Notes under the pieces: generated by a model
Told to the model about the DNA's origin: nothing
What the model saw: only the letters and a program-made list of their open reading frames with translations
The model's database searches: none
Position numbers and translations under genes: made by a program
Shown: piece by piece, positions 7,050 through 63,227 of the stretch
How the letters are laid out: the number at the start of each line of letters is the position of its first letter
Position numbering within the stretch: the first letter of the stretch is position 1
Origin: Candidatus Moraniibacteriota bacterium
Lineage (GTDB): Bacteria > Patescibacteriota > Minisyncoccia > Moranbacterales > UBA1568
Assembly (NCBI GenBank): GCA_052034935.1
Contig: JBPOIB010000007.1
Span: 134 to 64,133 of the forward strand
Direction: 5' to 3'
Length of the DNA stretch: 64,000 nt

Positions 7050-7162
7050 GTGATTTTATTTCATAGTCACTATACCATAATCTCCGGCACGGCTGAAAGA
7101 TTTTTCCGTTCCGATTTCAAAACGAGTGGTATACTACAGAAAAAGAAATATCTACTTCAATT

Positions 7163-7624
7163 ATGCGGATTTCCCTTCTCCTCTTTTTCTCGCTCTTTAC
7201 GATTTTTACTTCCGTGCTCTGGGCGCTGCCAGCTGCCGAAGTCCAGGCTGGTATCATCCCCTGCGGCCTCACAAAGGATGACCCTGCACTGGACGGGGAC
7301 CAGACAGTGAAATGCACCCTCTGCCATCTCGTCGTGGGCGTGAACAATATCATCATCCTGCTCCGGAATATCATGACGGCGCTCGCGATCGTGGTGATCG
7401 TAGCGATGGCTTTCGTCTACATCACGTCCGCTGGCGACGAGGGCCGCATGCGCTTTGCCAAGGAGGGTATCACCGCCGCGCTTATTGGCTTCGCCATCAT
7501 CCTCTTGGCCTGGCTCGCGGTGAACTTCGTTCTCACTCTGCCTATCTTCAATACCGGGCCCGACCGGCTGATCCGGGTCGACTGGCAAAAGATCCAGTGC
7601 AACACCGATTCGCTCGCCAAGTAA
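7163..7624 (+). CDS. Hypothetical exported Cys-containing protein with two C-terminal hydrophobic helices (VirB2/TrbC-like topology)
   Basis: Signal peptide MRISLLLFFSLFTIFTSVLWALPAAEVQA; a C-x16-C-x2-C region; then two TM helices; divergent from pilM. Confidence 0.45.
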   Translation: MRISLLLFFSLFTIFTSVLWALPAAEVQAGIIPCGLTKDDPALDGDQTVKCTLCHLVVGVNNIIILLRNIMTALAIVVIVAMAFVYITSAGDEGRMRFAKEGITAALIGFAIILLAWLAVNFVLTLPIFNTGPDRLIRVDWQKIQCNTDSLAK

Positions 7625-7685
7625 GGGACAGTTCCTGGTCGGTTTTTCGATACCAAACACCTTCCGAAACTGATCTCGAACTCCG

Positions 7686-7714
7686 TTGACATCCCCCCTC
7701 TCCAGCTCTACAAT
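7686..7714 (+). promoter_or_regulatory. Sigma-70 consensus promoter of clpC (TTGACA-17nt-TACAAT)
   Basis: TTGACA at 7686-7691, 17-nt spacer, TACAAT at 7709-7714; the predicted TSS is about 6 nt before the ATG at 7727. Confidence 0.6.
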
Positions 7715-7726
7715 TGGGTGTACTCT

Positions 7727-49575: not shown

Positions 49576-49674
49576 ACGAAACGTTTGCTATTTGGTTACG
49601 TGAATAAAAAACAATCAATCTGCGGGAGCTGCTTTATCAGATTCAGAGAGAGAAAAAAAACGGAAAAGCTCACT

Positions 49675-50142
49675 TTAGGCAAAGTGAGCGAAGGCTTTGT
49701 TGGCTTCGGCCATCCGATGGGTCTCGTCACGCTTCTTCATGGCGGATCCAATCTTGTTCGAGGCGTCGATGAGCTCGTCAGCGAGCTTGTTGGCCATGGA
49801 CTTGCCTTTGCGGTTGCGGCAGCTGTCGCGGATCCAACGCATCGCGAGGACCTGGCGGCGCTCGCCGGAAACCGGGACCGGGACCTGGTAGTTCGCTCCA
49901 CCGACGCGGCGGCTTTTCAGTTGGAGAAGAGGGGAAACGTTCTTGATGGCTTGTTCAAAAGTATTGAGACCGGCTTTCTTGGTCCGCTCGGCGATGATAT
50001 CAAAGGCATCGTAGATGATACGCTCGGCGATGCTCTTTTTGCCACCCCACATAATCATCCCGACGAAATGCCCAACCAAAGGATTGCCGAAACGAGCGTC
50101 CGGCTTCCATGTCTTATCAAATTGTCGCTTTCTCCGTGGCAT
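49675..50142 (-). CDS. rpsG: 30S ribosomal protein S7
   Basis: 155 aa. Confidence 0.9.
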   Translation of the reverse strand: MPRRKRQFDKTWKPDARFGNPLVGHFVGMIMWGGKKSIAERIIYDAFDIIAERTKKAGLNTFEQAIKNVSPLLQLKSRRVGGANYQVPVPVSGERRQVLAMRWIRDSCRNRKGKSMANKLADELIDASNKIGSAMKKRDETHRMAEANKAFAHFA

Positions 50143-50163
50143 AAATTTCGTTCAGATTGGCAC

Positions 50164-50583
50164 TTAGTCTTTCTTCTTCTCCTTCTTCGCACCGTACTTC
50201 GAGCGGCTCTGCTTTCTCGTTGTCACGCCGGCAGCATCGAAGATACCGCGAACGACGTGATAGCGTACACCTGGAAGGTCCTTCACGCGGCCGCCCCGAA
50301 TCATGACGATCGAGTGCTCCTGGAGATTGTGGCCTTCGCCCGGGATGTAGGCCGTCACTTCCATGCCGTTGGTGAGCCGGACACGAGCAATCTTGCGCAT
50401 CGCGGAGTTCGGTTTCTTTGGGGTCATGGTCGTCACCTTGAGACAGACTCCCCGCTTGTAGGGACTATCAGTCTTGGTAATGCGATTCTTGACCGTATTG
50501 ATAACAAAAGTCATCGCCGGAGACTTGGATTTCTTCTTGGCGATCTTGCGCGGGCGCTTGATAAGCTGATTGATGGTGGACAT
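50164..50583 (-). CDS. rpsL: 30S ribosomal protein S12 (carries an insertion of about 10 aa after SKSPA)
   Basis: [24 protein letters not shown] motifs; 139 aa versus the typical 124. Confidence 0.9.
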
Positions 50584-50648
50584 TCGTGTCGAATTCGTTA
50601 GCTTAGGCTTGAGACAAACAAAAAAAGACGTGTTGTCGATGTGAAACG

Positions 50649-50677
50649 AGTGTACCGGATAGGAAACTGCTTGTCAA
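50649..50677 (-). promoter_or_regulatory. Candidate sigma-70 promoter of the rpsL-rpsG-fusA operon
   Basis: Minus-strand TTGACA (50672-50677), 17-nt spacer, TACACT (50649-50654). Confidence 0.45.
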
Positions 50678-50691
50678 CTGGATACTCGAAT

Positions 50692-51411
50692 CTACAGAAT
50701 CAACCCGAAGAAAAGGTTCAGAAAAAACGACATAAAGGCGCTAATCGGGGCTGGGAAAAGAAAAATGATAAAAAGGAGGACGAAGAAGCCATACTGCTCG
50801 AGCTGGAGCTGTGTCCGCTCGCTCACTGGGAAGAAGGTGAAGAGGATTTTCGAACCATCCAAGGGTGGGATCGGCAGCAGATTGAAGCAGCCCAGGACGA
50901 CATTCCAGAAAACCACAAAGAGGAGGAGACCAAAAAAGATACTCGGGAGAGAGCCCGCCATGAGTGCCGCCAGATCACCGAAGCGCTCAAGGAAGCCGCT
51001 TCCACCGCCGATGACCTTGGAGAAGCTCCGGTACATCTCGAGTTTCTCGCCCGTCGCAAGAGGAACGACCATAGCGAGTACAGCAGCTACAAAAGCCATA
51101 ATAAAATTTGTCGCCGGACCAGCAAGCGCTACTTGGAGCGGCCCCCATTTCTGATCCCGGAGATTGGTCGGATTGTACGGTACCGGCTTGGCATAGCCGA
51201 AAGCAAAACCGGTCGGGATGAGGAGGAGCGGAATGAGAATGGAACCAATTGGATCGATATGGCTCACCGGATTCAACGTAATTCGCCCGGCAAATTTTGC
51301 CGTGATGTCGCCGAGCCAAAGTGCCACAACCCCATGCGACACTTCATGGATGATCACCGAGTAGAGCAGCGTGGCGAAATAAAACGCCAAGAGAACAATT
51401 TCATTAGACAT
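50692..51411 (-). CDS. Site-2 protease family (M50) zinc metalloprotease
   Basis: HEVSHG (HExxH) in the first TM; LDG motif; multi-TM. Confidence 0.8.
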   Translation of the reverse strand: MSNEIVLLAFYFATLLYSVIIHEVSHGVVALWLGDITAKFAGRITLNPVSHIDPIGSILIPLLLIPTGFAFGYAKPVPYNPTNLRDQKWGPLQVALAGPATNFIMAFVAAVLAMVVPLATGEKLEMYRSFSKVIGGGSGFLERFGDLAALMAGSLPSIFFGLLLFVVFWNVVLGCFNLLPIPPLDGSKILFTFFPVSERTQLQLEQYGFFVLLFIIFLFPAPISAFMSFFLNLFFGLIL

Positions 51412-51775
51412 AGAAAGGTTTTGAGAGGAATACCGTAAGTATCGGAGCGGAAAATAAAATCCACTCCCCTTACCAAGATACCATATCCGACAGGGTCCTT
51501 CTCCACTCTTGCCGAAATCGATTAAGCATGATATCCTCGGTAGGCATCTAAACAGCCTTTGAAGTTTTTGCTATGAGCCGTGTCTGCCAACTTTCCGGCC
51601 GGGGAACCCAAACCGGTAATAAAATCAGCCATTCCAAGCGCCATACCCGCCGCACATTCGCGATTAATCTCCAGACGAAGCGCATCGGCGGCATGAAATT
51701 CCGGCTTTCGACTCGTGCCATCCGGACTTTGGCGAAGTCTGCCGCCTAGACCTTGGCTTCATTGCTGAATCAAAT

Positions 51776-51806
51776 AAAAACGAGGCTGTGGAGCCTCGTT
51801 TTTATT
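51776..51806. terminator. Bidirectional intrinsic terminator
   Basis: AAAAA-CGAGGCT-GTGG-AGCCTCG-TTTTTAT. Confidence 0.6.
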
Positions 51807-51893
51807 ATCCCCCTAAAAAAGATGGCCGGCATGGACAAAGTGCCTAAAATATGCAATTATTTAGCGTCCAATCAAGGACACAAGGAGACAGAG

Positions 51894-52031
51894 ATGCCCT
51901 TTCCTCCCGCACCGTTCACCCTGATGATGTACAAAGTGAACGAGTGGCTGTTCGCCGCCATCGTTCTGTCAACGATGTTCCCCTCGCTCTGCGTCACCAG
52001 CCTCTCGACTGCCCCACTGGGGATCTGGTAG
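51894..52031 (+). CDS. Candidate 45-aa hydrophobic micro-protein
   Basis: Strong SD AAGGAGACAGAG before the ATG at 51894; followed by a terminator at 52051-52092. MPFPPAPFTLMMYKVNEWLFAAIVLSTMFPSLCVTSLSTAPLGIW. Confidence 0.3.
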   Translation: MPFPPAPFTLMMYKVNEWLFAAIVLSTMFPSLCVTSLSTAPLGIW

Positions 52032-52050
52032 CGAGCGAAAGACACCTCGG

Positions 52051-52092
52051 CCCACCGGCAGGAAACCTGCTTCGGTGGGCTTTCTGCTTTTT
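52051..52092 (+). terminator. Intrinsic terminator (hairpin CCCACCG...CGGTGGG followed by CTTTCTGCTTTTT); also lies just 3' of dsbB
   Basis: 7-bp GC stem with a 15-nt loop, then a T-run; an A-run precedes it on the other strand. Confidence 0.55.
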
Positions 52093-52131
52093 ATACAAAG
52101 CCAATGTTCTGGCAGCATTTTCCACCAATGA

Positions 52132-52641
52132 TTAGCTTGGGTCGGACGGAGTAGTTTTGCTTCTTGTATAAATCCAAAGGCCGGCCAGAGTCAGTCCAGT
52201 GAAGGCGATGAGTGACCAGTCAGCGATTGAAAGTCCGAGCATAGTCCAATCGATAATCGCACAGTTACCAGTACCGCCAAGTGCTGCGAGAAAGTCATCA
52301 AGCATGGAACCGAAGGAAACCGCACAGCCGCTTGATTCCACTATTTTCTGGAAATGCTGGAGATAGACGTGGCGAGCCGCGATCATCCAACCAACAAATG
52401 CAAAGAGAGAAACGGCCAGGCCCGCTGCCCGGATGGTAAACTGGCGCCACCAGCCCATATAACCAGTCAGTGCCGAAAGTCCCACAAAGGCATAAAAGAA
52501 ACGTTGTGCGATACAAAGCGGACACGGAACGAGGTTTACCATATGGACCAGATACATGGCAAAGAGAAGCAGACTCGCACAATAGATCGCGATAGCAAGG
52601 AGGAGATTTTTCGGCTCGAACAGAAGACGAAGGTAGTGCAT
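52132..52641 (-). CDS. dsbB: Disulfide bond formation protein B
   Basis: CPLC in the first periplasmic loop; second Cys pair later; 4 TM helices. Confidence 0.8.
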   Translation of the reverse strand: MHYLRLLFEPKNLLLAIAIYCASLLLFAMYLVHMVNLVPCPLCIAQRFFYAFVGLSALTGYMGWWRQFTIRAAGLAVSLFAFVGWMIAARHVYLQHFQKIVESSGCAVSFGSMLDDFLAALGGTGNCAIIDWTMLGLSIADWSLIAFTGLTLAGLWIYTRSKTTPSDPS

Positions 52642-52781
52642 ACGTTATGACAAGAAATTCCCTTTTCAGTATAGCAGCCGTACCCGAAAACGTATTCCCA
52701 CCCACTGTAACCCCCTCTCTCTTTTAGTGAACTGCTGTCGGTTGTTATGATGCGTGATGCGCCACACAGTCATTGTCTTCG

Positions 52782-53024
52782 CTACTTCCTAAGAGAAATA
52801 TCCATATCTGTGATTTTCTGCTCGAGAAGCGGCATAACACCATCAAGCATCCGATTCCAAAGAGCGCTATTCGTCGCTTGAAGAACAACATCCAAAACTC
52901 GCCCGGCCGCGACAACGCCAATCTTCTCACCGCGTTCTTTTTCGAAATATCCGATTATCTCACCTACTGCATGACGGCGTTCCACATCGGAAAGCACATC
53001 CCAGTCGCGCTTCACTCCGGACAT
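52782..53024 (-). CDS. DUF2164-family protein
   Basis: 80 aa, YoaH-like. Confidence 0.5.
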   Translation of the reverse strand: MSGVKRDWDVLSDVERRHAVGEIIGYFEKERGEKIGVVAAGRVLDVVLQATNSALWNRMLDGVMPLLEQKITDMDISLRK

Positions 53025-53034
53025 ATCTGTGTGC

Positions 53035-53685
53035 CTATTTTGGCATCTTCAGCACATCAACGACACGGCCATTCATGACGAAATTATCCTCTGACGTGAG
53101 AAAAATCGGCTGATGCCTTTTATCAGTCGACTCGGGTAGGAGGGCGATCATCTTGCCGCCCTGAGAGCGGTATGTTTTCACCGTTGCGAGCCCGTCGATC
53201 ACGACGAGTACCCGATCACCATTCTTGTACTCTTTCACCTCGGCATCAACCAGGACGAAATCGCCATTCTGGATGAGCTTACCGTTCACCTTGGCACGAT
53301 TCATCGATGTGCCGGAGATCTGGACAGCGAAGACATTATGATCCTTAACGAGCCGTTTCGAGACGCGCAGGTACCCTTCGACGTACTGATCAGCAAACAT
53401 GGTTGCCGCTCCAGCACTCGCGGCTCCGAAAACCGGAATCTCGACAAAACTATCAGAATTCACACCCTTGAGGAGAATCCCGCGGTCCTCACTCGTCCGT
53501 TCGATGTAGCCTTTGTCCTCGAGCGCATTCAGGTAGAGGAAAAAGCTTCGAAGGCTTTTCAGGTTCAGTCCGAGCTTACTACTCTCCTCTTTGATTTCAC
53601 GTACCGTCGGCATTTCACCGTGGTCGGTAAAGAACTGTTTTATGGCCTGGAGGACAATGCGCTGTTTTTGAGTCAGGATTTCCAT
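53035..53685 (-). CDS. lexA: LexA repressor (S24 peptidase)
   Basis: N-terminal wHTH; Ala-Gly cleavage site region; Ser nucleophile GTSM; catalytic Lys. Confidence 0.9.
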   Translation of the reverse strand: MEILTQKQRIVLQAIKQFFTDHGEMPTVREIKEESSKLGLNLKSLRSFFLYLNALEDKGYIERTSEDRGILLKGVNSDSFVEIPVFGAASAGAATMFADQYVEGYLRVSKRLVKDHNVFAVQISGTSMNRAKVNGKLIQNGDFVLVDAEVKEYKNGDRVLVVIDGLATVKTYRSQGGKMIALLPESTDKRHQPIFLTSEDNFVMNGRVVDVLKMPK

Positions 53686-53756
53686 AGTGCTTATGTGTTT
53701 ACTTCACTTACACTATGAATTATATAATCTTCCGAAATCCTGTCAAACGACCATTT

Positions 53757-54620
53757 TCAAAAGAGTTCTCCCCGCCAGTCTGGACTCACTATCGTTTGAC
53801 CGTCAGATCGAAAAACGAGGTAACTCGAACGAAACGAGCGGGCCAATGCCGGATAACATTCTTCGATAGCGAGGAACAGCCCCGAGGTCATGCAGTCCGC
53901 GGACCAGGCATCAGGCGCGAGCGCAGCGCAGCCCACAACCAATTCGATAACTTTCCGCGTTCCAGGGTCAACTAGGTGATGCCACTTCCCCCACCGCCGC
54001 CGAAAACTATCCGACACGGCAAGACCCTGTTGTGACAGTTCGACGACACCTGCCGCAATATCAGGCTTTCCAGGATATTCAATAGCTACGCGCCAGGGTC
54101 GGCCATCCGCTTTGGACGTTCCGAACATATCGCCGCCCCCATCCACGATAAAATATTCATAACCTACCCGGCGGACAATGTCCGCAATCCGATCGATGCA
54201 GTAACCCTTGCCAATACCACCGAGATCAAAGGCCGCCGGACCATCGAGCACTAACGCGCCGTCGACGAGCGACCAGGCCGGGAGCTGCTCTCCGTATTGA
54301 ATCGAGACCAACTTTGACTGACCGCCATAGCCTACTCCTTCGAGAACACCTCCAACGACTGGATCATACACGCCGCCAGTGAGTCCGCGGAGGAGCGCCG
54401 CCCGTTCAAGAAGCCGGAAAAATTCAGGGGAAATCGGATAAGTTCCAGCAGCAACCTCTCGAAAAGCATTTGTCTCTGAGCCGGGCAAAAAACGCGAAAA
54501 ACGGGACTCAAAGTCCCGCGCATAACTGACCACCTGCTCACGGAGACTCTCCGGGATTGACTCGGTGTCAACCACAACTGACCAGGCCGTCCCCAGCCCT
54601 TGGAAACCAATCGTCTGCAT
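53757..54620 (-). CDS. apbE: FAD:protein FMN transferase (ApbE family), no signal peptide detected
   Basis: 287 aa with ApbE core motifs (DLGGIGKGY, DGGGD); begins MQTIGFQGLGTAWSV without a lipoprotein signal. Confidence 0.75.
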   Translation of the reverse strand: MQTIGFQGLGTAWSVVVDTESIPESLREQVVSYARDFESRFSRFLPGSETNAFREVAAGTYPISPEFFRLLERAALLRGLTGGVYDPVVGGVLEGVGYGGQSKLVSIQYGEQLPAWSLVDGALVLDGPAAFDLGGIGKGYCIDRIADIVRRVGYEYFIVDGGGDMFGTSKADGRPWRVAIEYPGKPDIAAGVVELSQQGLAVSDSFRRRWGKWHHLVDPGTRKVIELVVGCAALAPDAWSADCMTSGLFLAIEECYPALARSFRSSYLVFRSDGQTIVSPDWRGELF

Positions 54621-54631
54621 GTATCTATTCG

Positions 54632-55090
54632 CTAAATCTGCTTCTGGAGATCTTTGATTGCGTCATTGAACGCCCATGTTGTCAGTGAGGACTGGCCAAC
54701 CTTGTCGATAGCGGTCAGTTCGGACAGCTTCTTGCCCTTGAGGATAACATTCACCTCGCTATTAAAATCTTTTTTCTTCTCGGGCACTTCATTCGTCTCA
54801 GCATCCAGTGTCTGAATCTGCTCGATCATCCCCGCCGCGTCAAGGGTCACTACAAATCGGAGATGGTCTACCTTATCACCTGGCACCTCATAACTCACCG
54901 TCGCACTCACTTCGCGCGGTTTATCCATGACGGCAACCGGCGCCGGAACAGTTTCCGGCTTCATCGAACGAAAGATGCTGGCCGCCTGACGATAATAAAT
55001 CGCTACGGTAACAACGAGAACGAAAGCAATAAGTACAAGACTCTTGGGTATTTTTTGCATACTCTTTTTATTTTTTTTCGACACCACCAT
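54632..55090 (-). CDS. Membrane-anchored FMN-binding-domain-like protein (probable ApbE substrate)
   Basis: N-in signal anchor; C-terminal KGKKLSELTAIDKVGQSSLTTWAFNDAIKDL; 11-nt gap to apbE. Confidence 0.45.
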   Translation of the reverse strand: MVVSKKNKKSMQKIPKSLVLIAFVLVVTVAIYYRQAASIFRSMKPETVPAPVAVMDKPREVSATVSYEVPGDKVDHLRFVVTLDAAGMIEQIQTLDAETNEVPEKKKDFNSEVNVILKGKKLSELTAIDKVGQSSLTTWAFNDAIKDLQKQI

Positions 55091-55188
55091 AATACACCCG
55101 GGCTAAGCTGGAATCAAACGACTTATTTGAGATTCAAAGAAAAAAGTCCTTACCGCCAAGTGGCGACAAGGACCCTGAGAAAAACCGC

Positions 55189-55551
55189 TCAAGCGATGCG
55201 ACGATTGATTGCGCGGCGGATATGCCGCCTGACTCGGCCGAGCGAAAGAGGCCTCCCCGGTTCGAAACGAATGAATGGGAAGCGCCAGCGGCCGACACCA
55301 GGACCGATAAGGAGTGTTCCTTTCGGCGGGGCATCGACACCGACCTGGAAATCGATCTGAATCGTGAGCCGCCAGAGCGCGCCGGCCGGGTGCACGATGT
55401 TCATCTCATCGTCCCGAACCTCGTCGAGGAATCCTGGAATCCACGGGTGATGCATCACAAGATGCTCATACACCGCATGGATCGAATCCGGAGTTCGCTC
55501 GATCAAAACACCATTTTGGAAACGGCGCCAGACAACCAGCGGCAGCATCAT
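55189..55551 (-). CDS. Hypothetical protein (GC-rich)
   Basis: 120 aa ORF, no recognisable motif. Confidence 0.35.
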   Translation of the reverse strand: MMLPLVVWRRFQNGVLIERTPDSIHAVYEHLVMHHPWIPGFLDEVRDDEMNIVHPAGALWRLTIQIDFQVGVDAPPKGTLLIGPGVGRWRFPFIRFEPGRPLSLGRVRRHIRRAINRRIA

Positions 55552-55757
55552 GGGTTACCCTCCTTGAAGCGAGTCAACAGTTGGGAAAAAACGAAGACGG
55601 TCAGCTTAGCGGAAAGAATGCACACAGTCAATGCTGTCCCACTCCTTGTAGATACAAAGACTAGCGGAAACTCCCGTATTGCCGTCTCTCTTCCCTCATG
55701 CTATGCTAGGCGCTCAAGTTTTTTCCCAATTCCTATAACCTTCCCGGAGGAAATCGC

Positions 55758-55952
55758 ATGCTCCCCGTCTCTCGTGAAACACTGTTCGTGACGCTCATCT
55801 GCGCTCTCGCAATCGGATCCGCGATGATTCCGTTCCTGCTTTCTCCAGACAGCACCGGGTTCTGGCACATCGATACCAGAGCACAGTCATCGAGCGAGCA
55901 GTCTGCGCCAGCGGCTGAGCCGCCACATCAAAACGCCAGCAGCCCTCAGTGA
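55758..55952 (+). CDS. Hypothetical small membrane protein
   Basis: SD GGAGG 7 nt upstream of the ATG; one TM helix. Confidence 0.4.
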   Translation: MLPVSRETLFVTLICALAIGSAMIPFLLSPDSTGFWHIDTRAQSSSEQSAPAAEPPHQNASSPQ

Positions 55953-56051
55953 ACGTCGCTGCGTCAAACGCGCCGCCCGCAATGTCAGGCGGCCTTTTTC
56001 TTTTCTCGCAAGACAAAACCGGCTCCTTAGAGCCGGCTGAATTAGCTCTTA

Positions 56052-56225
56052 TTATTTTTTGGTCTGGACTATCTGGGCCCTCGACTGAGCCTCCGAATCA
56101 TACATACTCGCCTCAGCATAGTCGGCCTGGATGCCCTGGCTTTTGTTGACGACTAACTGTCCCATGAGAAAAGAAACGGAAACGACGAGGGTGAGTGCAA
56201 GAAGAGTAGGGATTTGATGACGCAT
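56052..56225 (-). CDS. 57-aa secreted peptide (signal peptide, Gln/Ala-rich mature part)
   Basis: MRHQIPTLLALTLVVSVSFLMG...; followed at 56020-56045 by a hairpin and T-run terminator on the minus strand; below the ORF-track size cutoff. Confidence 0.4.
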   Translation of the reverse strand: MRHQIPTLLALTLVVSVSFLMGQLVVNKSQGIQADYAEASMYDSEAQSRAQIVQTKK

Positions 56226-56310
56226 AGATTTTTATATTAATATTCTTCCCTTACTCTAGCATGAGACCGCTGCTCGAATCTATCATTCTGTCCATGCTAT
56301 CATTTGTTAT

Positions 56311-56994
56311 ATGACCAATCCATCCGAAATGCCACCCGTGCAGCCGCCGAAACCAGTCGCGGAGACCCCTCGGCACGAATTACCCGTGACAGAGCCACAA
56401 ATACCTGATGCGCCAACTCACCCGGAAAAACCCCTTGATCCGCCGCAGCTGAGTATTAAAGAACGCGTTTCAGCTGACACCCTGACACCCGAACAGGCAG
56501 AACAAGCCGCGAGAATGTTCGAACCCATTCGGGATCCAGTATTGAACGCCGCCCGGAGACAAGAAGCCAGAGAGCGCCAACGTCTCCATCCCGACCAGGA
56601 TGGCCCTGTCGTTCCCTCCACGGCGGCTGAAATGGCCGAGTATGAACGACGCTACGATAGCGGATGGCAAGACCCTGCTGATTCGCAAAGCCGCGAAGCA
56701 GTCAATCAGAAGGAACGCGAGGATTTAGAAAATCTAAGAAGGGCGGTTGAACTCATGGATGAGTTTGAGCTTGCCTATCCCCTGCAAGAATTGCACGCGA
56801 TTACTCATATTTCGGTTCCTGAGCTCATGGCGCATCCAATCCGGAAGCCAGCCAACATTGCCCTCGTTCATATCCGAAAAGCGATAGACGCTACTGGATC
56901 AAAGAAAATACCAGAGATTGAGGAACGCTACCTCCGTCTTTCTCGAGCAGTCGGAAAATATAACTCTCTCAGTAAATCAGTCGAGCACGATTAG
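56311..56994 (+). CDS. Hypothetical protein with Pro-rich N-terminus
   Basis: 227 aa. Confidence 0.4.
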   Translation: MTNPSEMPPVQPPKPVAETPRHELPVTEPQIPDAPTHPEKPLDPPQLSIKERVSADTLTPEQAEQAARMFEPIRDPVLNAARRQEARERQRLHPDQDGPVVPSTAAEMAEYERRYDSGWQDPADSQSREAVNQKEREDLENLRRAVELMDEFELAYPLQELHAITHISVPELMAHPIRKPANIALVHIRKAIDATGSKKIPEIEERYLRLSRAVGKYNSLSKSVEHD

Positions 56995-57039
56995 CGACTT
57001 CCTATCAGATAAAGAAAAAAGAGGGGGGCCGCATCACGT

Positions 57040-57070
57040 GCGGCTCCCCTTTGGAAACACGGTGAGTCCT
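57040..57070. terminator. Bidirectional terminator (GGGGGCCGCA-TCACG-TGCGGCTCCCC)
   Basis: 10-bp GC stem; a T-run on the minus strand (TCTTTTTTCTTT) and AAAAAAGAG/TTTGG on the plus strand. Confidence 0.6.
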
Positions 57071-57083
57071 GACTGACTCGGCG

Positions 57084-57350
57084 CTACCGGCAACCTTCGG
57101 CCGGCTGGGCAGATTCGGACTCTCCCATCTCCTCGACGAGGAGGTAAGCGGTCTGCCGACTCCAGGGTTCTTCGAAAGAGACCACCCGCTTCTCGCAGAT
57201 GGCGCCGTTCGGCATCTGCACGTCCGCCACGCTGCACGAGACTTCGATCTCGGCACCGGCTCGGATCTCGAAGCGGGATGCCTCGAGGTATCCTGTATCC
57301 GGGTTGTGCTTGAAGACAAGCACGTTCTTCGTGAGTTTAATGGTCGTCAT
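57084..57350 (-). CDS. Hypothetical protein (88 aa)
   Basis: SD AAGGAGA 8 nt upstream of the ATG at 57350; the track ORF extends to 57413. Confidence 0.4.
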   Translation of the reverse strand: MTTIKLTKNVLVFKHNPDTGYLEASRFEIRAGAEIEVSCSVADVQMPNGAICEKRVVSFEEPWSRQTAYLLVEEMGESESAQPAEGCR

Positions 57351-57509
57351 CGACACTTCTCCTTCGGTTGGGGTGGTGGAAAATGAGAAAGGAACTTCCG
57401 CCGAGTATCGCAAATCCGGCCGCCTGAGTCAAATGAAAACCGCCGAGAATCACTCCGGTGCGGTTTTTGGTTTTTTCATCCTGCCGTCAGATGCACTCCC
57501 TGACTGTCA

Positions 57510-58112
57510 TTAAAGAATCTTCCTCGGCTGCAAAAGGACGAAAAAGAAAGAGATAAGTGCAAAGGCAGCCATGATGATGAAGACCGGCACGAAACCAAAA
57601 TAGGTAGCAATAAATCCGCCGGCTACCACTCCTACCGCCGAGATCAAGCTATGAAAAATACTCCATGAGGAATAATCCCTTACTGTTTCTCCGTGATCCA
57701 GATGCCTTGCGAAAAGGGCATTGAATGACGGGCTGCCGAGTGCCTCCCCCAATCCGAGAAGTACCTGGACGAAGAGGAGCATCGGCATGTTGGCAACGAA
57801 GATATACGCGAGCCAGGCGATGGCTCGGACGAGGAATCCCGCCATGAGGAGGTATTCTTTCTCTCTCATCCGATCGCCGAACTGGGCAATCAAGAGAGTA
57901 AACAGCGTAGAGGCGATCAGAAAAGCAGCCGAAGAGGCGCTGATGGCCACCGGAGTCGAAACGATTCTCTCAACATACACCGCATATAGCGGACCGAGCA
58001 GGCTCGCACCGAAAATAAAAATCCCGTTCGCTTGAAAAAGCACTTTGAGTCCTTTGTTTCTCATGTTTCTCATTGTACATGAGAAGTCTCCCACCGACCC
58101 AAAAATATACAT
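57510..58112 (-). CDS. Half-size MFS-like membrane protein (6 TM), possibly a truncated transporter
   Basis: 200 aa; resembles the C-terminal half of an MFS transporter. Confidence 0.4.
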   Translation of the reverse strand: MYIFGSVGDFSCTMRNMRNKGLKVLFQANGIFIFGASLLGPLYAVYVERIVSTPVAISASSAAFLIASTLFTLLIAQFGDRMREKEYLLMAGFLVRAIAWLAYIFVANMPMLLFVQVLLGLGEALGSPSFNALFARHLDHGETVRDYSSWSIFHSLISAVGVVAGGFIATYFGFVPVFIIMAAFALISFFFVLLQPRKIL

Positions 58113-58239
58113 TCACCCCTTCAAAGGATTGACAGGATGCTTTTTTTGCTGTTCAATGCAAGGTCGGTCTCGAAGCAAGCTACCCGGGGCCGATAGGTCC
58201 CTTTGTCCCTTCCCACAACGCTTCGAGGAGTTCCTCACC

Positions 58240-58980
58240 ATGTTCCGACACATCATCCCCGCCCTCACCCTGCTCGTCGGGATTGCCTTCGCCAGCCCCG
58301 GCGTCGCCCAGTCCCTCAACCGGGTCTGCAGCGGCGCCCTGCCGGACGTCCCCATACCGCCTGACGCGCTCCACATGGTCGAGGTGATCCAACCCGAGTA
58401 CCAGCCGCCCCAAAGGATGGCCGACCTCGGCTTCGATCACATCACGCCGACCATCAATGTGGTCACAACGTACCCGTGCAATCGCGGCCTCGGCTCGATG
58501 GTCGAGATCGAGGAGATGCGTCTCGTCCGCTACGACCACCTGACGAAGGTGCACATCACCGAGCAGACGATTCGCTACGGCACCGCCGCCACCCTCGTTG
58601 GCGCGATGTGGTACCGCGAACCGGTCTGGTTCCAGAGCGGCCAGCCGAATCCGCAGCCGTGGGTGACGTGGATCCAGAGCGGCAACTTCGCCGTCAGCGT
58701 CCAAGCGACCCCGCTCGGCGTCTACCACTGGTGGGGCCATCCCCGGCTGAAGATGAAGCCCGGCTACGCCTACTTCGTGGAAGCGAAAATCCGGGTCATC
58801 GGTGACACCCGCGTCCAGCTCGGGCTCGACTACTGGCGCGGCGCCACGACCATCTACAACGGCTACTCGGCCGGCTGCGTCAATTCGAACAATTGCGAAG
58901 CCTACCAAAGCCACTGGATCGGTCCGACGAATGGCCAGTTCGTCACCGTCATCACCCCGATGACGCTCTACACCCCCTGA
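58240..58980 (+). CDS. Hypothetical secreted protein, GC-rich (about 62%)
   Basis: Signal peptide MFRHIIPALTLLVGIAFASPGVAQS; SD GAGGAG. The track ORF starts at 58045. Confidence 0.5.
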   Translation: MFRHIIPALTLLVGIAFASPGVAQSLNRVCSGALPDVPIPPDALHMVEVIQPEYQPPQRMADLGFDHITPTINVVTTYPCNRGLGSMVEIEEMRLVRYDHLTKVHITEQTIRYGTAATLVGAMWYREPVWFQSGQPNPQPWVTWIQSGNFAVSVQATPLGVYHWWGHPRLKMKPGYAYFVEAKIRVIGDTRVQLGLDYWRGATTIYNGYSAGCVNSNNCEAYQSHWIGPTNGQFVTVITPMTLYTP

Positions 58981-58997
58981 CCGCCACGCTTCGCCAC

Positions 58998-59050
58998 GCG
59001 AAGCAACAGTAAAGCCGCCCTCTGCACCAGCACGGCGGCTTTCAATTTTT
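58998..59050 (+). repeat. Hairpin repeat R1 (subfamily A: GCTTCGC-CAC-GCGAAGC ... GCCGCC-loop-GGCGGC-TTTCAATTTTT); terminator of 58240-58980
   Basis: See finding; shares a 50+ nt consensus with R6. Confidence 0.75.
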
Positions 59051-59118
59051 CCTTTCCTTCTTAGTCAATCACAAACATCCACATTCCCAACATCTCAAAG
59101 AGTCTCTATACTACCCTG

Positions 59119-60078
59119 ATGAAGATACTCTTTGGGCTCATTATCCTCCTACTCCTCGCCGCTTTCACTTTAGTTTTTCCGCAGACCAAAAAAGAATCCC
59201 AAGAATCCATAGTGACCAAAGAACCCCCAGCACGTGAAGAAGAAAATATCACGGATGCCATCGCCGAAAAAAAGCCCCTTTCAATCTCCCTTTCTTCTCC
59301 CTCGGCCATCCAAGGAGAACCAGTACTCGTGACGGCAGAAGGAATTACTGACCGCTCACTCGTCGAGTCCTTCACCTTCGACGGGAAATCAATTCCGGTT
59401 TTCGAACATGAAGGAAAATTAGCTGCCTTTCTCAGCATCGACCTGCACAAAAAGCCCAGCTCCTACGAAGTGACGCTCCTTTCGAAAGACGGCGAAAAAG
59501 CGACCGTCAGTCTCGAAGTCAAAGAGCGCATTCTCCCCGTATCGGATTTTGACATTCCCGAAAGCTTTGGTGGCAACACTGTGGCCGGCGAACAAAAACT
59601 CACGAGCAATTTAGAATCTGACACCAAGACCTTGAACGCTGTCACAGCGCTCATCAGTCCCGAAAAGCTTTGGACGGAAGCCTTTCGCCCTCCGCTCGAC
59701 GGTAACCCGGTTGTCACTGACACCTATGGCTATAGCCGACAAACTGGCGCCACCAATATCAGTCACAATGGTACCGACTTCCGGGCCGCCGTCGGCACTC
59801 CGGTGTACGCCATGAATGCCGGCCAAGTGGCATTTGCCGGAACGTTCCGGAATTATGGCCACACCGTTATCATCGATCACGGCCAGGGACTGATGACCAT
59901 GTACATGCATCTCTCCGAACTCAAAGTCGAAACTGGCACGCCCGTAAAAAAGGCCGCTCTGATCGCGCTCTCCGGCAATACCGGCTACTCGCTCGGCCCC
60001 CACCTCCACCTCTCCGTCCGGATTTATGGTTACTCCCTAGATCCCATCAAATTCCTCGAACTCATGGGCCCGAAATAA
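59119..60078 (+). CDS. M23-family (LytM-like) peptidoglycan metalloendopeptidase, secreted
   Basis: HxxxD and HxH (GPHLHLSV) motifs; signal peptide. Confidence 0.8.
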   Translation: MKILFGLIILLLLAAFTLVFPQTKKESQESIVTKEPPAREEENITDAIAEKKPLSISLSSPSAIQGEPVLVTAEGITDRSLVESFTFDGKSIPVFEHEGKLAAFLSIDLHKKPSSYEVTLLSKDGEKATVSLEVKERILPVSDFDIPESFGGNTVAGEQKLTSNLESDTKTLNAVTALISPEKLWTEAFRPPLDGNPVVTDTYGYSRQTGATNISHNGTDFRAAVGTPVYAMNAGQVAFAGTFRNYGHTVIIDHGQGLMTMYMHLSELKVETGTPVKKAALIALSGNTGYSLGPHLHLSVRIYGYSLDPIKFLELMGPK

Positions 60079-60103
60079 ACCAGCGAGTACAAAGCAGACA
60101 GCA

Positions 60104-60140
60104 CCGCCAAAGGATACTCTCCGAGGCGGCTTTCGTTTTT
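60104..60140 (+). repeat. Hairpin repeat R2 (subfamily B: CCGCC-AAGGATACTCTCCGAG-GCGGC-TTTCGTTTTT); terminator of the M23 gene
   Basis: See finding. Confidence 0.7.
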
Positions 60141-60199
60141 CAAGCTATCATGGCTGAAATGAATCACATCTCTCTCCCGCGAACACAGCCCAAAAAGAG

Positions 60200-60532
60200 C
60201 TATCGAAGCTTCACTGCCGTACCGTAGGCGAGGATTTCAGCAGCACCCGTCATGATCTGCGATGTCGTGAATCTGACTGACACGACAGCATCAGCTCCCA
60301 TGTCCTTGGCTTGCTGCTGCATCCGTTGCAGTGCTTCTTCACGGGCATCGGTCATTGCCTTCACGTACCCCTTGATTTCTCCGCCGACGAGACTCTTTAG
60401 TCCGGCGCCGATATCACTCCCGATATGCCGTGCACGGATAGTATTGCCCATCACCATTCCGAGTGTCTCAGTGATCTCTTTCCCTGTGATAACATCAGTC
60501 GTTGTGACAAACATAGTACTAAGTGTCTTCAT
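60200..60532 (-). CDS. YbjQ/UPF0145-family protein
   Basis: MFVTTTDVITGKEI...AVKL matches the UPF0145 core; start at 60532 or 60514 (the track ORF runs to 60628). Confidence 0.7.
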   Translation of the reverse strand: MKTLSTMFVTTTDVITGKEITETLGMVMGNTIRARHIGSDIGAGLKSLVGGEIKGYVKAMTDAREEALQRMQQQAKDMGADAVVSVRFTTSQIMTGAAEILAYGTAVKLR

Positions 60533-60586
60533 AAATTTACAGTTCCAGTATATCAAACGACCCCACTCGGCATCGGCCCCTACCAC

Positions 60587-60620
60587 TCGCGAAGCAAAAG
60601 TAAGGCGGCTTTCAATTTTT
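60587..60620 (+). repeat. Hairpin repeat R3 (subfamily A, internally deleted copy)
   Basis: CGCGAAGCAAAAGTAA-GGCGGCTTTCAATTTTT. Confidence 0.6.
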
Positions 60621-60629
60621 CTTTTCACA

Positions 60630-61320
60630 CAATAAAACCAGCCTTTCGGCTGGCTTTGAAAAGTATCAAAACTGTTGAGAGAGGAGAAGCGGAATCGGTT
60701 GAAACCGCTTCTCCCTGTATAGGTCGACCGGACGAACTCGCCTGAAGCGAAATGGACGAACGGTCTTCCTCCCGAGTTTGCAGCAGATGGGCTTGGCCGA
60801 GTGTCGAATGGGCGCAGGCCGGACCCTCCCGACGAGCGAGCACAGTTCCAAGTGAACTCACTTATCGGCTCCGCCAGTATCCATCTGTTTTTAGCACCCC
60901 AAGGGGCGGCATAGGCAGTCCGACTGCCCTACTCTCTCCTCCAATGCGCGTGGTCGCCAAACGCGGACCGTGGAGATCTAAACGCGGGTAAGGAACATGG
61001 TGAGAAAAATTTCTCTCAACAACTTTGATCGTAATTGGAAATGAATCAATACTCTTGAGAGAGAAGGAGTCGAGTACGCGGAAACGACTCCCTCTCAAGT
61101 AGTAGCCGAGGCACCCATCAAGAGTTGCCCCCATCTGTGCGAGAAAGGAACCCACCTTTTGATCCGTGCTGATCAGGCACTTACCCCAAGATAGTTTTCC
61201 AGCCCCAGAAATCCCCCGGCTTGAACGTTGAGAATTGCTTCTCTCAAGAATATTGATGTGCAAAATAACTGAAAAGCAGTATGGCAAAGAACAGCCGTTC
61301 CGTCAATCCTCAGATACAAA
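60630..61320 (+). ncRNA. ORF-free segment of about 0.7 kb with related long hairpins; candidate structured noncoding RNA(s), strand tentative
   Basis: No credible ORF. H1 (60674-60720) is a 10-bp GC stem; H2 (61054-61099) is an approximately 15-bp stem; both begin CT(N)TTGAGAGAG and have GAAA-ending loops. Bounded by R3 and R4. Confidence 0.3.
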
Positions 61321-61323
61321 AAA

Positions 61324-61360
61324 GCCGCCAAGGATCACTCCGAGGCGGCTTTCAATTTTC
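61324..61360 (+). repeat. Hairpin repeat R4 (subfamily B)
   Basis: GCCGCC-AAGGATCACTCCGAG-GCGGC-TTTCAATTTTC. Confidence 0.7.
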
Positions 61361-61398
61361 CCGTGTCATAATGAACAATTCTTTTCTGAATCTGAAAG

Positions 61399-62091
61399 CT
61401 AACGTGTATATGGATTAACCCCGGTGCAATCAGGATTATCTTTCCATGACCCCGGCCAATTTTTCCAATATAGATATTCTTCTTCATCTACAGCGACTAC
61501 CTTTGCAATTTTTGCTTCATTAGATTCACCCAAACCATGATACTTTGATGCGCTATAGTTCGAGATTATTATCGTTGCTTTCCCCGAAACATTGCATACA
61601 TCTCCCTCCACATTAGATTGTGGGACTTTTGTTTTTTGACTAAGTAACGCTACCGAATCATCGTAGAAATCAAGTACTTTATCTCCATTGTTCCAATCTT
61701 GGCCGGCTAGATTAGGAAATAAATATTCCTGCTCACGATTAATCCGAAACCAACCATCTGCACTACCTCTCCAATAGGTACCTGAAACCGTTACATAGCC
61801 TTGATAGTAGTAATTGTTCTCATCCTCTCCCACTTTCACAAACGGTTTAGTTATAGGGGTAGTTTCTATTAGTCCGTCTTCTTTCTCGGACCCTATAGTA
61901 GTGGCCTCAGTAATTAGCCCCGCTGACTGAACGGGCTCAGACCGAGGAATCGATTGAACTTGCGTAGTATCACCTTTAATCAACGACACTTGCGAGGGAT
62001 ATGATTTCGGTACACTAAAAAAATTTACTGCTGCAAAAAGTGAGAGAACAACTACCACTGCACAAAAAAGGTAGATTTTATGAAAATTCAT
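61399..62091 (-). CDS. Hypothetical secreted protein in an AT-rich (about 40% GC) islet
   Basis: Signal peptide MNFHKIYLFCAVVVVLSLFAAVNF; 230 aa; Trp/Tyr/Asn-rich. Confidence 0.5.
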   Translation of the reverse strand: MNFHKIYLFCAVVVVLSLFAAVNFFSVPKSYPSQVSLIKGDTTQVQSIPRSEPVQSAGLITEATTIGSEKEDGLIETTPITKPFVKVGEDENNYYYQGYVTVSGTYWRGSADGWFRINREQEYLFPNLAGQDWNNGDKVLDFYDDSVALLSQKTKVPQSNVEGDVCNVSGKATIIISNYSASKYHGLGESNEAKIAKVVAVDEEEYLYWKNWPGSWKDNPDCTGVNPYTR

Positions 62092-62139
62092 ATTTGATTT
62101 TATTTGCCTTCATTCTACAGGAACGCCTATTAAACAAAA

Positions 62140-62178
62140 GCTGCCAAGGATCACTCCGAGGCGGCTTTCAATTTTTTC
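62140..62178 (+). repeat. Hairpin repeat R5 (subfamily B)
   Basis: GCTGCC-AAGGATCACTCCGAG-GCGGC-TTTCAATTTTTT. Confidence 0.7.
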
Positions 62179-62246
62179 TTTTAAAAAAGAATAGGGTCTG
62201 CCACGCGGTACGTGACAAACCCTTTCGTAAACCAGGGCGAGCCACC

Positions 62247-62591
62247 CTAGCCATCGAGTGCCCCAATCGCCTGATCGATATCCGCTTGCCAGTATTCGGG
62301 AGCGAAGTCCTTGAGCCAGACTTGCTGGACGCATGCTTGAGCAAATATCCGGACCACATCGGCCTTGTCGCCGTCTTGATAGCGGAACCCCGGACACTCG
62401 AGGACCGTGATCGAGTAGCCTTCGGCCCGCTCGAGATTCTCCGCCAGAGTGCCCTCGCCGAACTTCATCGGCGGATCCTCTTGGTACTCGTCGTCAGGCC
62501 AGAGCCCGCTCGCATCATATTCCTCGAGCTCCTCGCGTGAGTGGTGAAGGATTTCCGGACGCCCGCAGTGGGCACAGTTGAAACGGAACAT
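62247..62591 (-). CDS. Hypothetical Cys-containing acidic protein (CxxC at N-terminus)
   Basis: MFRFNCAHCGRPE...; 114 aa. Confidence 0.4.
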   Translation of the reverse strand: MFRFNCAHCGRPEILHHSREELEEYDASGLWPDDEYQEDPPMKFGEGTLAENLERAEGYSITVLECPGFRYQDGDKADVVRIFAQACVQQVWLKDFAPEYWQADIDQAIGALDG

Positions 62592-62667
62592 GGTCGTTCT
62601 CCTTGGGCAAAGAAATACAATGAACTCGGGACCACTCTAGCGCGGAGATAGTCCGCCGTCAAACAAA

Positions 62668-62705
62668 AACCGCTGATAATCACTCCGAGGCGGCCTTCGA
62701 TTTTT
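62668..62705 (+). repeat. Hairpin repeat R7 (subfamily B, diverged)
   Basis: ACCGC-TGATAATCACTCCGAG-GCGGC-CTTCGATTTTT. Confidence 0.6.
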
Positions 62706-62811
62706 CCTATACTTGAGACTCAAATCTGACTATTGCAAATAGCCATATTTTATGCTATAATTTACAGTTAGTAGTTTTTTCCTAACCCGCAACCCCTCAC
62801 CGGAGAAACCG

Positions 62812-63141
62812 ATGAAATACCGACTGACGATTTCCATCATCTTCTCGCTGTGCCTGCTGGCAACCAACGGGGCGTTGTTCCTCTTCCTCTACTCCATCGA
62901 TGGCGACATCGGGAGATGGGCGTACGAGCGGCGCGCGGTCGAACGCATGCAGATGATGCAGGAATTCCACCGCACCCACCCACGTCCCGCATCAATCGGA
63001 TCTGCCCCCGCATACGGAGAAGGTTGGTTCATCATCGAACCAAAACTCGTGGACAAGCAGTGGAACGGCCCCGGACTCCTCCCCGGAGACCAGCCGGAAC
63101 CCTTGCCACCGTCCTGGGAACCACCGCCGCCCATCAAGTGA
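62812..63141 (+). CDS. Hypothetical membrane/secreted protein with Pro-rich C-terminus
   Basis: N-terminal TM; 109 aa; SD GGAG. Confidence 0.4.
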   Translation: MKYRLTISIIFSLCLLATNGALFLFLYSIDGDIGRWAYERRAVERMQMMQEFHRTHPRPASIGSAPAYGEGWFIIEPKLVDKQWNGPGLLPGDQPEPLPPSWEPPPPIK

Positions 63142-63154
63142 GGACAAGTCTTCG

Positions 63155-63212
63155 CCAAGCGAAGCAAAAGCAAAGCCGCCCTCTGCACCAAGCAAGGCGG
63201 CTTTCAATTTTA
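63155..63212 (+). repeat. Hairpin repeat R6 (subfamily A, full length); terminator of 62812-63141
   Basis: CTTCGCCAAGCGAAGCAAAAGCAAAGCCGCCCTCTGCACCAAGCAAGGCGGCTTTCAATTTT. Confidence 0.75.
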
Positions 63213-63227
63213 CAAAACTCAAGTCAG

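Follow-up and report, generated by a model that had tools for sequence, protein, structure and literature searches.

Repetitive extragenic palindromic sequences (REPs) of enterobacteria and pseudomonads occur in hundreds of copies genome-wide, are often paired in alternating orientation as bacterial interspersed mosaic elements (BIMEs), carry a GTAG-type head and are linked to REP-associated tyrosine transposases (RAYTs). The attC sites of integrons, about 55-140 nt long, are recognised by their R'' (RYYYAAC) and R' (GTTRRRY) cores, a two-box stem and extrahelical bases, while the integrase gene intI is not required for a cluster of attC sites lacking integron-integrases (CALIN). Uptake sequences are found genome-wide, about one per kb and in both orientations, and minimal mobile elements use flanking genes as homology. 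In Neisseria, homologous recombination following transformation swaps the alternative genes of such minimal mobile elements, whose flanks are conserved, and terminators there contain short conserved sequences (uptake sequences) (PMC1852404, PMC3787668). Here we describe a family of co-oriented hairpin modules, located at gene junctions of a variable island, in a 64,000-nt stretch of a Candidatus Moraniibacteriota genome (assembly GCA_052034935.1, contig JBPOIB010000007.1, positions 134 to 64,133 of the forward strand; henceforth the window, in whose coordinates positions are given), and compare it with these systems.

The genomes of Patescibacteria are tiny and contain few mobile elements that have been recognised, which is why it is poorly understood how accessory and defence genes vary in them. 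In the relatives compared here, the island that holds the modules carries Shedu SduA, Fic/RhuM and cell-wall hydrolase genes, and its content turns over between close relatives. An initial annotation of the window had reported seven co-oriented copies of a hairpin repeat in two subfamilies, A and B, and had interpreted them as a REP/BIME-like interspersed family rather than ordinary terminators. Literature searches found no prior description of the module.

Results

Eight co-oriented copies form one cluster

A search of the window with the 16-mer GGCGGCTTTCAATTTT gave exact matches at 59034, 60604, 61344, 62160 and 63196 and matches with two mismatches at 60125 and 62689, all of them on the plus strand. 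With up to three mismatches allowed there were nine matches against 0.84 expected, a number reached in none of 100 shuffles; the remaining two (56538 on the minus and 63669 on the plus strand) are chance. A covariance model built from 18 copies and run over the window with filters off detected eight copies, all on the plus strand and together spanning 57429-63217 (Table 1), and yielded no further match below E = 0.08 in the 64 kb except the reverse strands of the same hairpins. The repeat and its co-orientation, as first reported, are thus real, but the copies number eight: a diverged B-type copy (copy 8) lies beyond the 4.3 kb to which the family had been confined, extending the cluster to 5.8 kb. 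The accompanying statement that the motif occurs nowhere else in the window was confirmed, with no copy in the other 57 kb (including positions 1-57400). Other terminators in the window have unrelated stems, also as described initially; together with the single consensus to which the copies are 73-100% identical, this identifies a distinct family and not the generic terminator of the genome.

The module has the anatomy of a bidirectional terminator

The module is about 52 nt long and consists of an A-tract, a 6-bp GCCGCC/GGCGGC stem, a 2x2 internal loop, a 3-bp GGA/UCC inner stem, a UCAC tetraloop and the tail TTTCAATTTTTCC, with the hairpin taking up about 32 nt. The B form reads (T)CAAACAAAA-GCCGCC-AA-GGA-TCAC-TCC-GA-GGCGGC-TTTCAATTTTTCC, its 6-bp GC stem being lengthened by A/U pairs, and has the loop sequence AAGGATCACTCCGA in R2, R4, R5 and R6; what had been taken for a simple loop in this subfamily is really the internal loop, inner stem and tetraloop. 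The A form (R1, R7 and the truncated R3) differs in its loop and in having a further hairpin (GCTTCGC-CAC-GCGAAGC) upstream. For the last two copies, the subfamily labels had been interchanged: R7 is A-type and R6 is B-type. Stem and T-run are all that the A and B loop types share with each other and with the loop type of one relative (L161).

Predicted folding energies of canonical copies are -16 to -22 kcal/mol on either strand and those of A-type copies -25 to -30 kcal/mol (R1: -28.9 kcal/mol, z -6.05), with weaker folds for R6, R2 and copy 8. The U-tract tails are UUUCAAUUUU on the plus strand and UUUUGUUU or UUUUUUGU on the minus strand. Across 32 copies (those of the window and of the relatives described below) 87.5% of cells pair, with compensatory change at five pairs (e.g., GCCACC/GGTGGC and GUCGCC/GGCGAC). 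The covariation score over these 32 model-aligned copies was reached by 2 of 500 shuffles, and we consider it modest support since the alignment was fitted to the model; on 18 copies covariation was not significant. A search of Rfam returned a tRNA-Ser as the sole match in the window, the repeats themselves giving only a weak ctRNA-like hairpin match (E = 0.1). Two resemblances of the B-type loop may be coincidence: its sequence, GGATCACTCC or AATCACTCC (61330-61343, 62146-62159, 62675-62688 and 57445-57456), is similar to the 16S rRNA 3' end GAATCACCTCC (L065, about 7395-7420) minus one C, and on the minus strand it is Shine-Dalgarno-like (GGAGTGAT).

All window copies but R6 and the truncated R3, i.e., six of eight, lie directly at the 3' end of a gene on at least one strand. 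Initially, three copies had been placed where the terminator of a plus-strand gene is expected, and four upstream of, between or antisense to minus-strand genes. Of these, R6 and R3 have no gene 3' end beside them, but R4 and R5, like copy 8, lie at the 3' ends of minus-strand genes, and R2 and R7 lie between convergent genes. Two features of an intrinsic terminator, a GC-rich stem-loop with an immediate U-tract and a location at gene 3' ends, were found. Since there is also an upstream A-tract, which the contrast with ordinary terminators had overlooked, the hairpin is predicted to be a minus-strand terminator too. Rather than being an alternative to terminators, the copies are most likely joints that terminate and insulate in both directions.

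The three copies found in divergent intergenic regions (R6, L152 9920 and L155 6811) all have mismatched stems, R6 being the one of the three whose fold was computed (see Table 1); R6 nevertheless retains the loop, the 3' half and an abutting -35 box. More generally, copies that have the 5' end of a minus-strand gene as their left neighbour usually show a -35 TTGAC box immediately next to the A-tract, except that at R4 the box lies about 13 nt further upstream and that R3 and R5 have no clear box. No such box was found at copies that follow plus-strand genes. The same hairpin-plus-promoter module (about 75-80 nt; window 57387-57477) precedes the 88-aa gene in the window, PurN in L149 and L155, and Fic in L158.

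Copies in related genomes share orientation and consensus

Syntenic loci, one per genome, came from nine related genomes (L151, L152/L065, L155, L158, L149, L144, L161, L165 and L167) and were reached via an anchor gene (56311-56994), via the 230-aa protein gene of Table 1 and by pattern scans. These relatives are Patescibacteria (Moranbacteria-like), and their syntenic island holds 24 further significant copies. One homologue of the anchor gene carries the annotation Candidatus Moraniibacteriota. All 32 significant copies have one orientation relative to the island, independent of the direction of the flanking genes, and occupy about 18 distinct junction types that include convergent, tandem-minus, tandem-plus and divergent arrangements. 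On the question of whether copies are clustered or dispersed, the picture in the window (one island) is repeated in two longer contigs of relatives: exact matches to the 16-mer core fell in one stretch only of a 136-kb contig (among the matches listed), and exact matches to the core with its upstream GCCGCC arm in one stretch only of a 90-kb contig. Other pattern-scan matches were unrelated terminators from other phyla.

Similarity between copies does not follow their position. Copies at orthologous positions (0.69-0.86) resemble each other no more than random pairs do (0.78), and a 39-nt core is identical at 39 of 39 positions between non-orthologous copies of the window and L149, while the coding DNA is about 66-74% identical. 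One copy (L149 4327) is a hybrid with an A-type head and a B-type hairpin, and the truncated copies (R3, L151 9911 and L155 12973) have always kept the 3' half; R3 specifically still has the tail and the first hairpin's 3' arm, having lost the 5' arm and loop of the second.

The site after the anchor gene holds a B-type copy in L152, L155, L158, L149, L165 and L167. In the window (57000-57060) and in L151 it is occupied by a perfect hairpin, GGGGGGCCGCA-TCAC-GTGCGGCTCCCC, which is either a diverged orthologue that kept the TCAC loop or a replacement.

Cassettes turn over between the modules

One end of the island lies a few genes past lexA-apbE; the other is marked in L065/L152 by the 16S rRNA gene. 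In L152 and L158 the island is visible from lexA to a structured RNA-like element, which in L065/L152 is the neighbour of the 16S gene; the conserved sequence following this element in L065/L152 is also present in L158 and L161. A module is found at nearly every gene junction, and the units between modules differ among relatives, in which we found SduA, Fic/RhuM, NUDIX, Amidase_3, PurN, an S24/ImuB pair, GH6, M23 and YbjQ. G+C content ranges from 43% to 61% between cassettes. The M23, PurN and a 291-aa gene shift position relative to the anchor gene, yet every shared gene keeps its strand. The gene context given initially (GC-rich secreted protein, M23 peptidase, AT-rich gene, open reading frame (ORF)-free segment) holds, and the proposal of an accessory, plastic region agrees with this variation of gene content and order between copies.

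In L151, the closest relative (96% identical), homology ends 3 bp past the M23 stop codon and is followed by a different copy and a NUDIX gene, which occupies the place of the window YbjQ gene. The 230-aa protein gene has an 81% homologue in L161, again with copies on both sides but with different neighbours; the homologous block corresponds to window 61344-62182, beginning in the 3' half of R4 and finishing where R5 ends, and homology stops at the repeats. L151 also contains an 858-bp unit (6568-7425, against window 58084-58090) with a weak family hairpin, an Amidase_3 gene and a promoter, which is lacking in the window. A 73% homologue (P0012) of the partial gene beyond R7 has different, repeat-free surroundings. 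No integrase, recombinase or transposase Pfam family appeared in any island gene table of the fetched loci, including L152 and L158. The GC skew of the plus strand is negative throughout the window, and the 16S gene in relatives reads into the island.

Defence-type genes lie close to lexA in the islands of relatives (L152 10621-11727, L155 10688-11665, L158 10659-11630 and L149 707-1582); they comprise Shedu SduA, Fic/RhuM and a restriction-endonuclease-like gene, the last judged by eye from motifs with no family match on record, and L155 adds an S24 peptidase/ImuB-type SOS pair. The 16S rRNA gene (minus strand; L065 about 7395-8000, equivalent to L152 from about 12570 to the end) has an insertion of about 180 nt near the 3' domain. 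In the window, the MFS ORF encodes 200 aa and matches positions 4-172 of 347 of the Pfam profile only (the N-terminal half), and is probably a truncated gene that ends at copy 8.

The repeats also affect assembly. A Logan contig of the same organism (L021; SRR34217545, k = 31) ends at window 61356, inside R4, meaning that short-k assemblies break at these repeats; such breakage may be the cause of islands sitting at contig ends in several metagenome-assembled genomes.

A structured RNA-like element lies between modules

In the ORF-free segment, an unclassified, structured RNA-like element is present twice in tandem on the minus strand. It is about 210-370 nt long and closed by a 16-19-bp terminal helix, ATCAATAYTCTTGAGAGAG...CTCTCTCAAGARTATTGAT, with compensatory changes, whose mismatches become G.U pairs only on the minus strand. 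RNAalifold predicted 68 pairs, 18 of them with compensatory changes, and Rfam gave no match for the element or the ORF-free segment. Homologues (see Table 1) are found just downstream of the 16S rRNA 3' end in L065/L152 or between hairpin modules, and probably adjoin the 16S 3' end in L158 and L161 as well. The element behaves as a cassette situated between hairpin modules. A guide-RNA role was considered and dropped, as no consistent complementarity between the element and the hairpin was found; viral matches to the terminal arm were coding coiled-coil matches and are chance.

Table 1. Modules, genes and other features of the island in the window, with homologues of the RNA-like element in relatives.
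Feature	Position	Strand	Covariance-model interval	Remarks
88-aa gene	57084-57350	-
Promoter-like TTGACT-17-GATACT	57432-57404	-		directly after copy 8 on the minus strand, for 88-aa gene
Copy 8, diverged B-type	57429-57480	+	57429-57480	56.8 bits, E = 4e-12; 3' of MFS gene (-)
MFS gene, probably truncated	57510-58112	-
Signal-peptide protein gene	58240-58980	+		61% G+C; no Pfam match; same-strand homologues in L151 and L158
R1, A-type	58989-59055	+	59004-59055	GCTTCGC-CAC-GCGAAGC, then GCCGCC-N14-GGCGGC, tail TTTCAATTTTTCC; 3' of 58240-58980 (+), 5' of M23 (+)
M23 peptidase gene	59119-60078	+		PF01551, 8.9e-31
R2, diverged B-type	60093-60146	+	60093-60146	between convergent M23 (+) and YbjQ (-)
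YbjQ-family gene	60200-60526	-		PF01906, 7.9e-39
R3, truncated A-type remnant	60580-60625	+	60590-60625	24.5 bits
ORF-free unit	60628-61306	-		promoter-like site, two RNA-like element copies, own terminator
Terminator hairpin of ORF-free unit	60655-60628	-
RNA-like element, two copies	61257-61045, 61029-60665	-
Promoter-like TTGACG-17-CATACT	61306-61278	-		after R4, for RNA-like element
R4, canonical B-type	61314-61365	+	61314-61365	-20.1 kcal/mol on +, -21.8 on -; 3' of gene 61399-62091 (-)
230-aa protein gene	61399-62091	-		43% G+C; N-terminal hydrophobic segment
R5, canonical B-type	62130-62181	+	62130-62181	72.8 bits; between tandem minus-strand genes
14-bp terminator of 114-aa gene, strong	62223-62193	-		distinct from R5; two terminators stacked at the junction
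114-aa gene	62247-62591 (unit 62193-62591)	-
Promoter-like TTGACG-17-TAGAGT	62662-62634	-		beside R6
R6, B-type, decayed stem	62659-62710	+	62659-62710	divergent intergenic, no gene 3' end; -6.3 kcal/mol, z -0.13 on +
Promoter-like TTGCAA-17-TATAAT	62733-62761	+		beside R6
109-aa gene	62812-63141	+		no Pfam match
R7, A-type, two hairpins	63150-63217	+	63165-63217	93% to R1 over 41 nt; between convergent 62812-63141 (+) and 63228->64000 (-)
Gene of about 394 aa, 3' part	63228->64000	-		3' end abuts R7; frame open to window end; 73% identical to P0012
RNA-like element, L152	11919-12290
RNA-like element, L158	6588-6880, 13061-13390
RNA-like element, L149	119-450
RNA-like element, L161	54-343

Discussion

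What the window and the related loci present directly is a true repeat family that is clustered, co-oriented, conserved around a consensus and able to fold, that sits at gene junctions and that is accompanied by cassette turnover. We propose, with a probability of about 0.5, that the module, specific to this lineage and often joined to a promoter, acts as a terminator and insulator in both directions, is reused at nearly every junction of the island and also serves as homology for the exchange of single genes. Once transcribed, the hairpin and its U-tract would act as an intrinsic terminator in both directions, and termination would insulate single-gene transcription units from each other; on the minus strand, the U-tract often runs into the -35 TTGAC box, which would make a fused terminator-promoter joint. 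Given that the modules are directly repeated at junctions and common to related genomes, we infer that they may supply short homology where single-gene units are gained, lost or permuted. Exchange would proceed by recombination, with direct repeats or, once DNA has been taken up, collinear islands as partners, and either route would explain both the uniform orientation and the fact that permuted genes keep theirs. Alternatively, uniform orientation could reflect dominant minus-strand transcription and the direction of replication.

Several points weigh against this proposal. With respect to termination, the plus-strand U-tract UUUCAAUUUU is interrupted, R5 is partly redundant because the 114-aa gene has a strong terminator of its own, and neither the conserved loop and tail nor the strict co-orientation is explained by termination alone; termination and promoter use are predictions. 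With respect to exchange, a repeat of about 35-50 nt is at the lower limit for RecA-dependent exchange, and the coincidence of breakpoints with repeats is weak evidence for recombination there because the short spacers are mostly filled by the module. Some indels also have other boundaries. Specifically, a two-gene segment (95 aa and 253 aa) of L151 (2930-4170) corresponds to 77 bp in the window (55617-55694) with no family repeat at either junction, and the Amidase_3 unit of L151 has a 10-bp direct repeat, A(A/G)TCTCTCGC, at its two boundaries, suggesting an indel mediated by microhomology and not exchange at hairpins. Finally, the distribution of copies is judged from the window, the nine loci of relatives and the 136-kb and 90-kb contigs.

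A competing explanation, which we consider the best of the alternatives and still improbable, is that the copies are ordinary intrinsic terminators only, descended from one local ancestor by tandem duplication and kept by selection, with co-orientation as a by-product. Terminator anatomy and the position of most copies at gene 3' ends fit this, as do the decay of the stem where no termination is needed (R6), the restriction of what the three loop types share to stem and T-run, and the window site after the anchor gene, which would have drifted to a different perfect hairpin with the TCAC loop kept. However, the genes between copies are unrelated, and tandem duplication alone therefore does not produce the array; orthologous copies are no closer than non-orthologous ones, and the latter can be 100% identical across genomes whose coding identity is about 70%; one hairpin-plus-promoter module stands ahead of different genes in different genomes; and copies persist in divergent intergenic regions.

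A site-specific recombination system acting in trans and functionally similar to integrons is somewhat less probable still. Here the hairpins would be the recombination sites, recognised as folded hairpins or as arm-spacer-arm cores, and excised circles would be reinserted to give a co-oriented array. Such a system would account for an orientation that is uniform whatever the gene direction, at about 18 junction types in 10 genomes, for one copy per junction between single-gene units of heterogeneous G+C whose order is permuted and orientation preserved, for the conservation of loop and tail with the 39/39 match across diverged genomes, and for hybrid A/B copies and truncations that always spare the 3' half. 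Against it, no integrase or recombinase Pfam family is present in the island gene tables, the core triplets AAC/GTT and the two-box architecture of attC are absent, cassettes come with promoters of their own and occur on both strands, breakpoints do not share a single position but lie variously 5' of the hairpin, within it or 3' of it, and some indels in the island ignore the repeats. The attC/CALIN hallmark of co-oriented sites separating single-gene cassettes is found here, but we rejected identity with integron attC sites, as no AAC...GTT pair frames the element, a hairpin of about 32 nt is too short, and the L152 and L158 islands have no Phage_integrase-type match; of the source contig itself, the window leaves out about 2.3 kb at most. 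An equally doubtful variant is a cassette platform of the Candidate Phyla Radiation without an integron integrase, in which single genes, each having a terminator-promoter joint of its own, and a structured RNA gene might be moved between co-oriented hairpins beside the 16S gene by an unlinked recombinase or by host machinery.

The mobile-element interpretation favoured initially appears quite unlikely. It would have a REP/BIME-like or MITE-like element (miniature inverted-repeat transposable element) spread by a transposase of RAYT or IS200-605 type encoded elsewhere, with orientation set by replication direction. The family is star-like around its consensus, its copies are extragenic hairpins, and their uniform orientation coincides with the uniformly negative GC skew of the plus strand; single-strand transposition systems (IS200/IS605) give such an orientation bias. 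By contrast, no copy was found in the 57-kb flank, nor an exact pattern match outside the island in the 136-kb (among the matches listed) and 90-kb contigs, and copies recur at the same junctions across relatives. The comparison with REP/BIME fails on the lack of dispersal in the window and the scanned contigs, on the presence of one copy per intergenic region without inverted pairs and on the co-orientation of 32 of 32 copies, and the alignment contains no GTAG-type head; in the fetched loci we saw no RAYT gene and no Pfam match to a Y1 transposase. Derivation from a MITE or an IS200/605 element was likewise rejected, since the flanks of 30 copies revealed no target-site duplication and no terminal inverted repeat beyond the hairpin, and no transposase was found in the fetched loci.

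That the array is an assembly artefact, in which a shared repeat joined pieces of different organisms, is highly improbable: G+C jumps from 43% to 61% between neighbours and the k = 31 assembly breaks inside R4, but the independent Logan assembly reproduces window 49408-61356 with four copies up to that break, nine other assemblies have the same architecture with co-oriented copies, and the 230-aa unit is flanked by copies in L161 also.

Three further identities were tried and set aside. Uptake sequences (DNA uptake sequences or uptake signal sequences) do not fit copies confined to 5.8 kb of 64 kb in a single orientation, clustered regularly interspaced short palindromic repeats do not fit a spacing of 480-1570 bp that holds whole genes, and a link to phages found no more than single chance matches to the 16-mer in viral contigs.

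If the joints proposed above as terminators and insulators also serve as exchange points, they would represent a minimal, plug-and-play form of gene acquisition that needs no integrase. Read more conservatively, the island presents one terminator sequence that is reused and held to a consensus across genomes, which matters for terminator prediction. In either case, the tendency of short-k assemblies to break at the repeats is relevant for how such islands are assembled.

Among the described systems, bidirectional Rho-independent terminators share with the module the A-tract, GC-rich stem-loop and T-tract, the convergent or tandem sites and the stable predicted fold on both strands. They differ in that here one sequence family stands at almost every junction of a single island, with conserved loop and tail, uniform orientation, copies in divergent intergenic regions and, at most copies ahead of a minus-strand gene, a -35 box fused on the side of that strand. 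REPs and BIMEs are similar as short, extragenic, imperfect palindromes that form consensus-centred families and often lie in 3' untranslated regions with roles as terminators or mRNA stabilisers, whereas the copies described here are single, co-oriented and limited to one island, with no RAYT seen. Integron arrays and CALINs resemble the island in having co-oriented, structured repeats between single-gene units of mixed composition, the content and order of which vary while orientation is kept; here, however, there are no R''/R' AAC/GTT cores, the hairpin has about 32 nt, no intI was seen, and genes with their own promoters lie on both strands. The Neisseria systems resemble what is proposed here in the exchange of genes between conserved flanks and in the short conserved sequences within terminators, but in the island the putative homology is the junction module of about 50 nt itself, restricted to this one locus.

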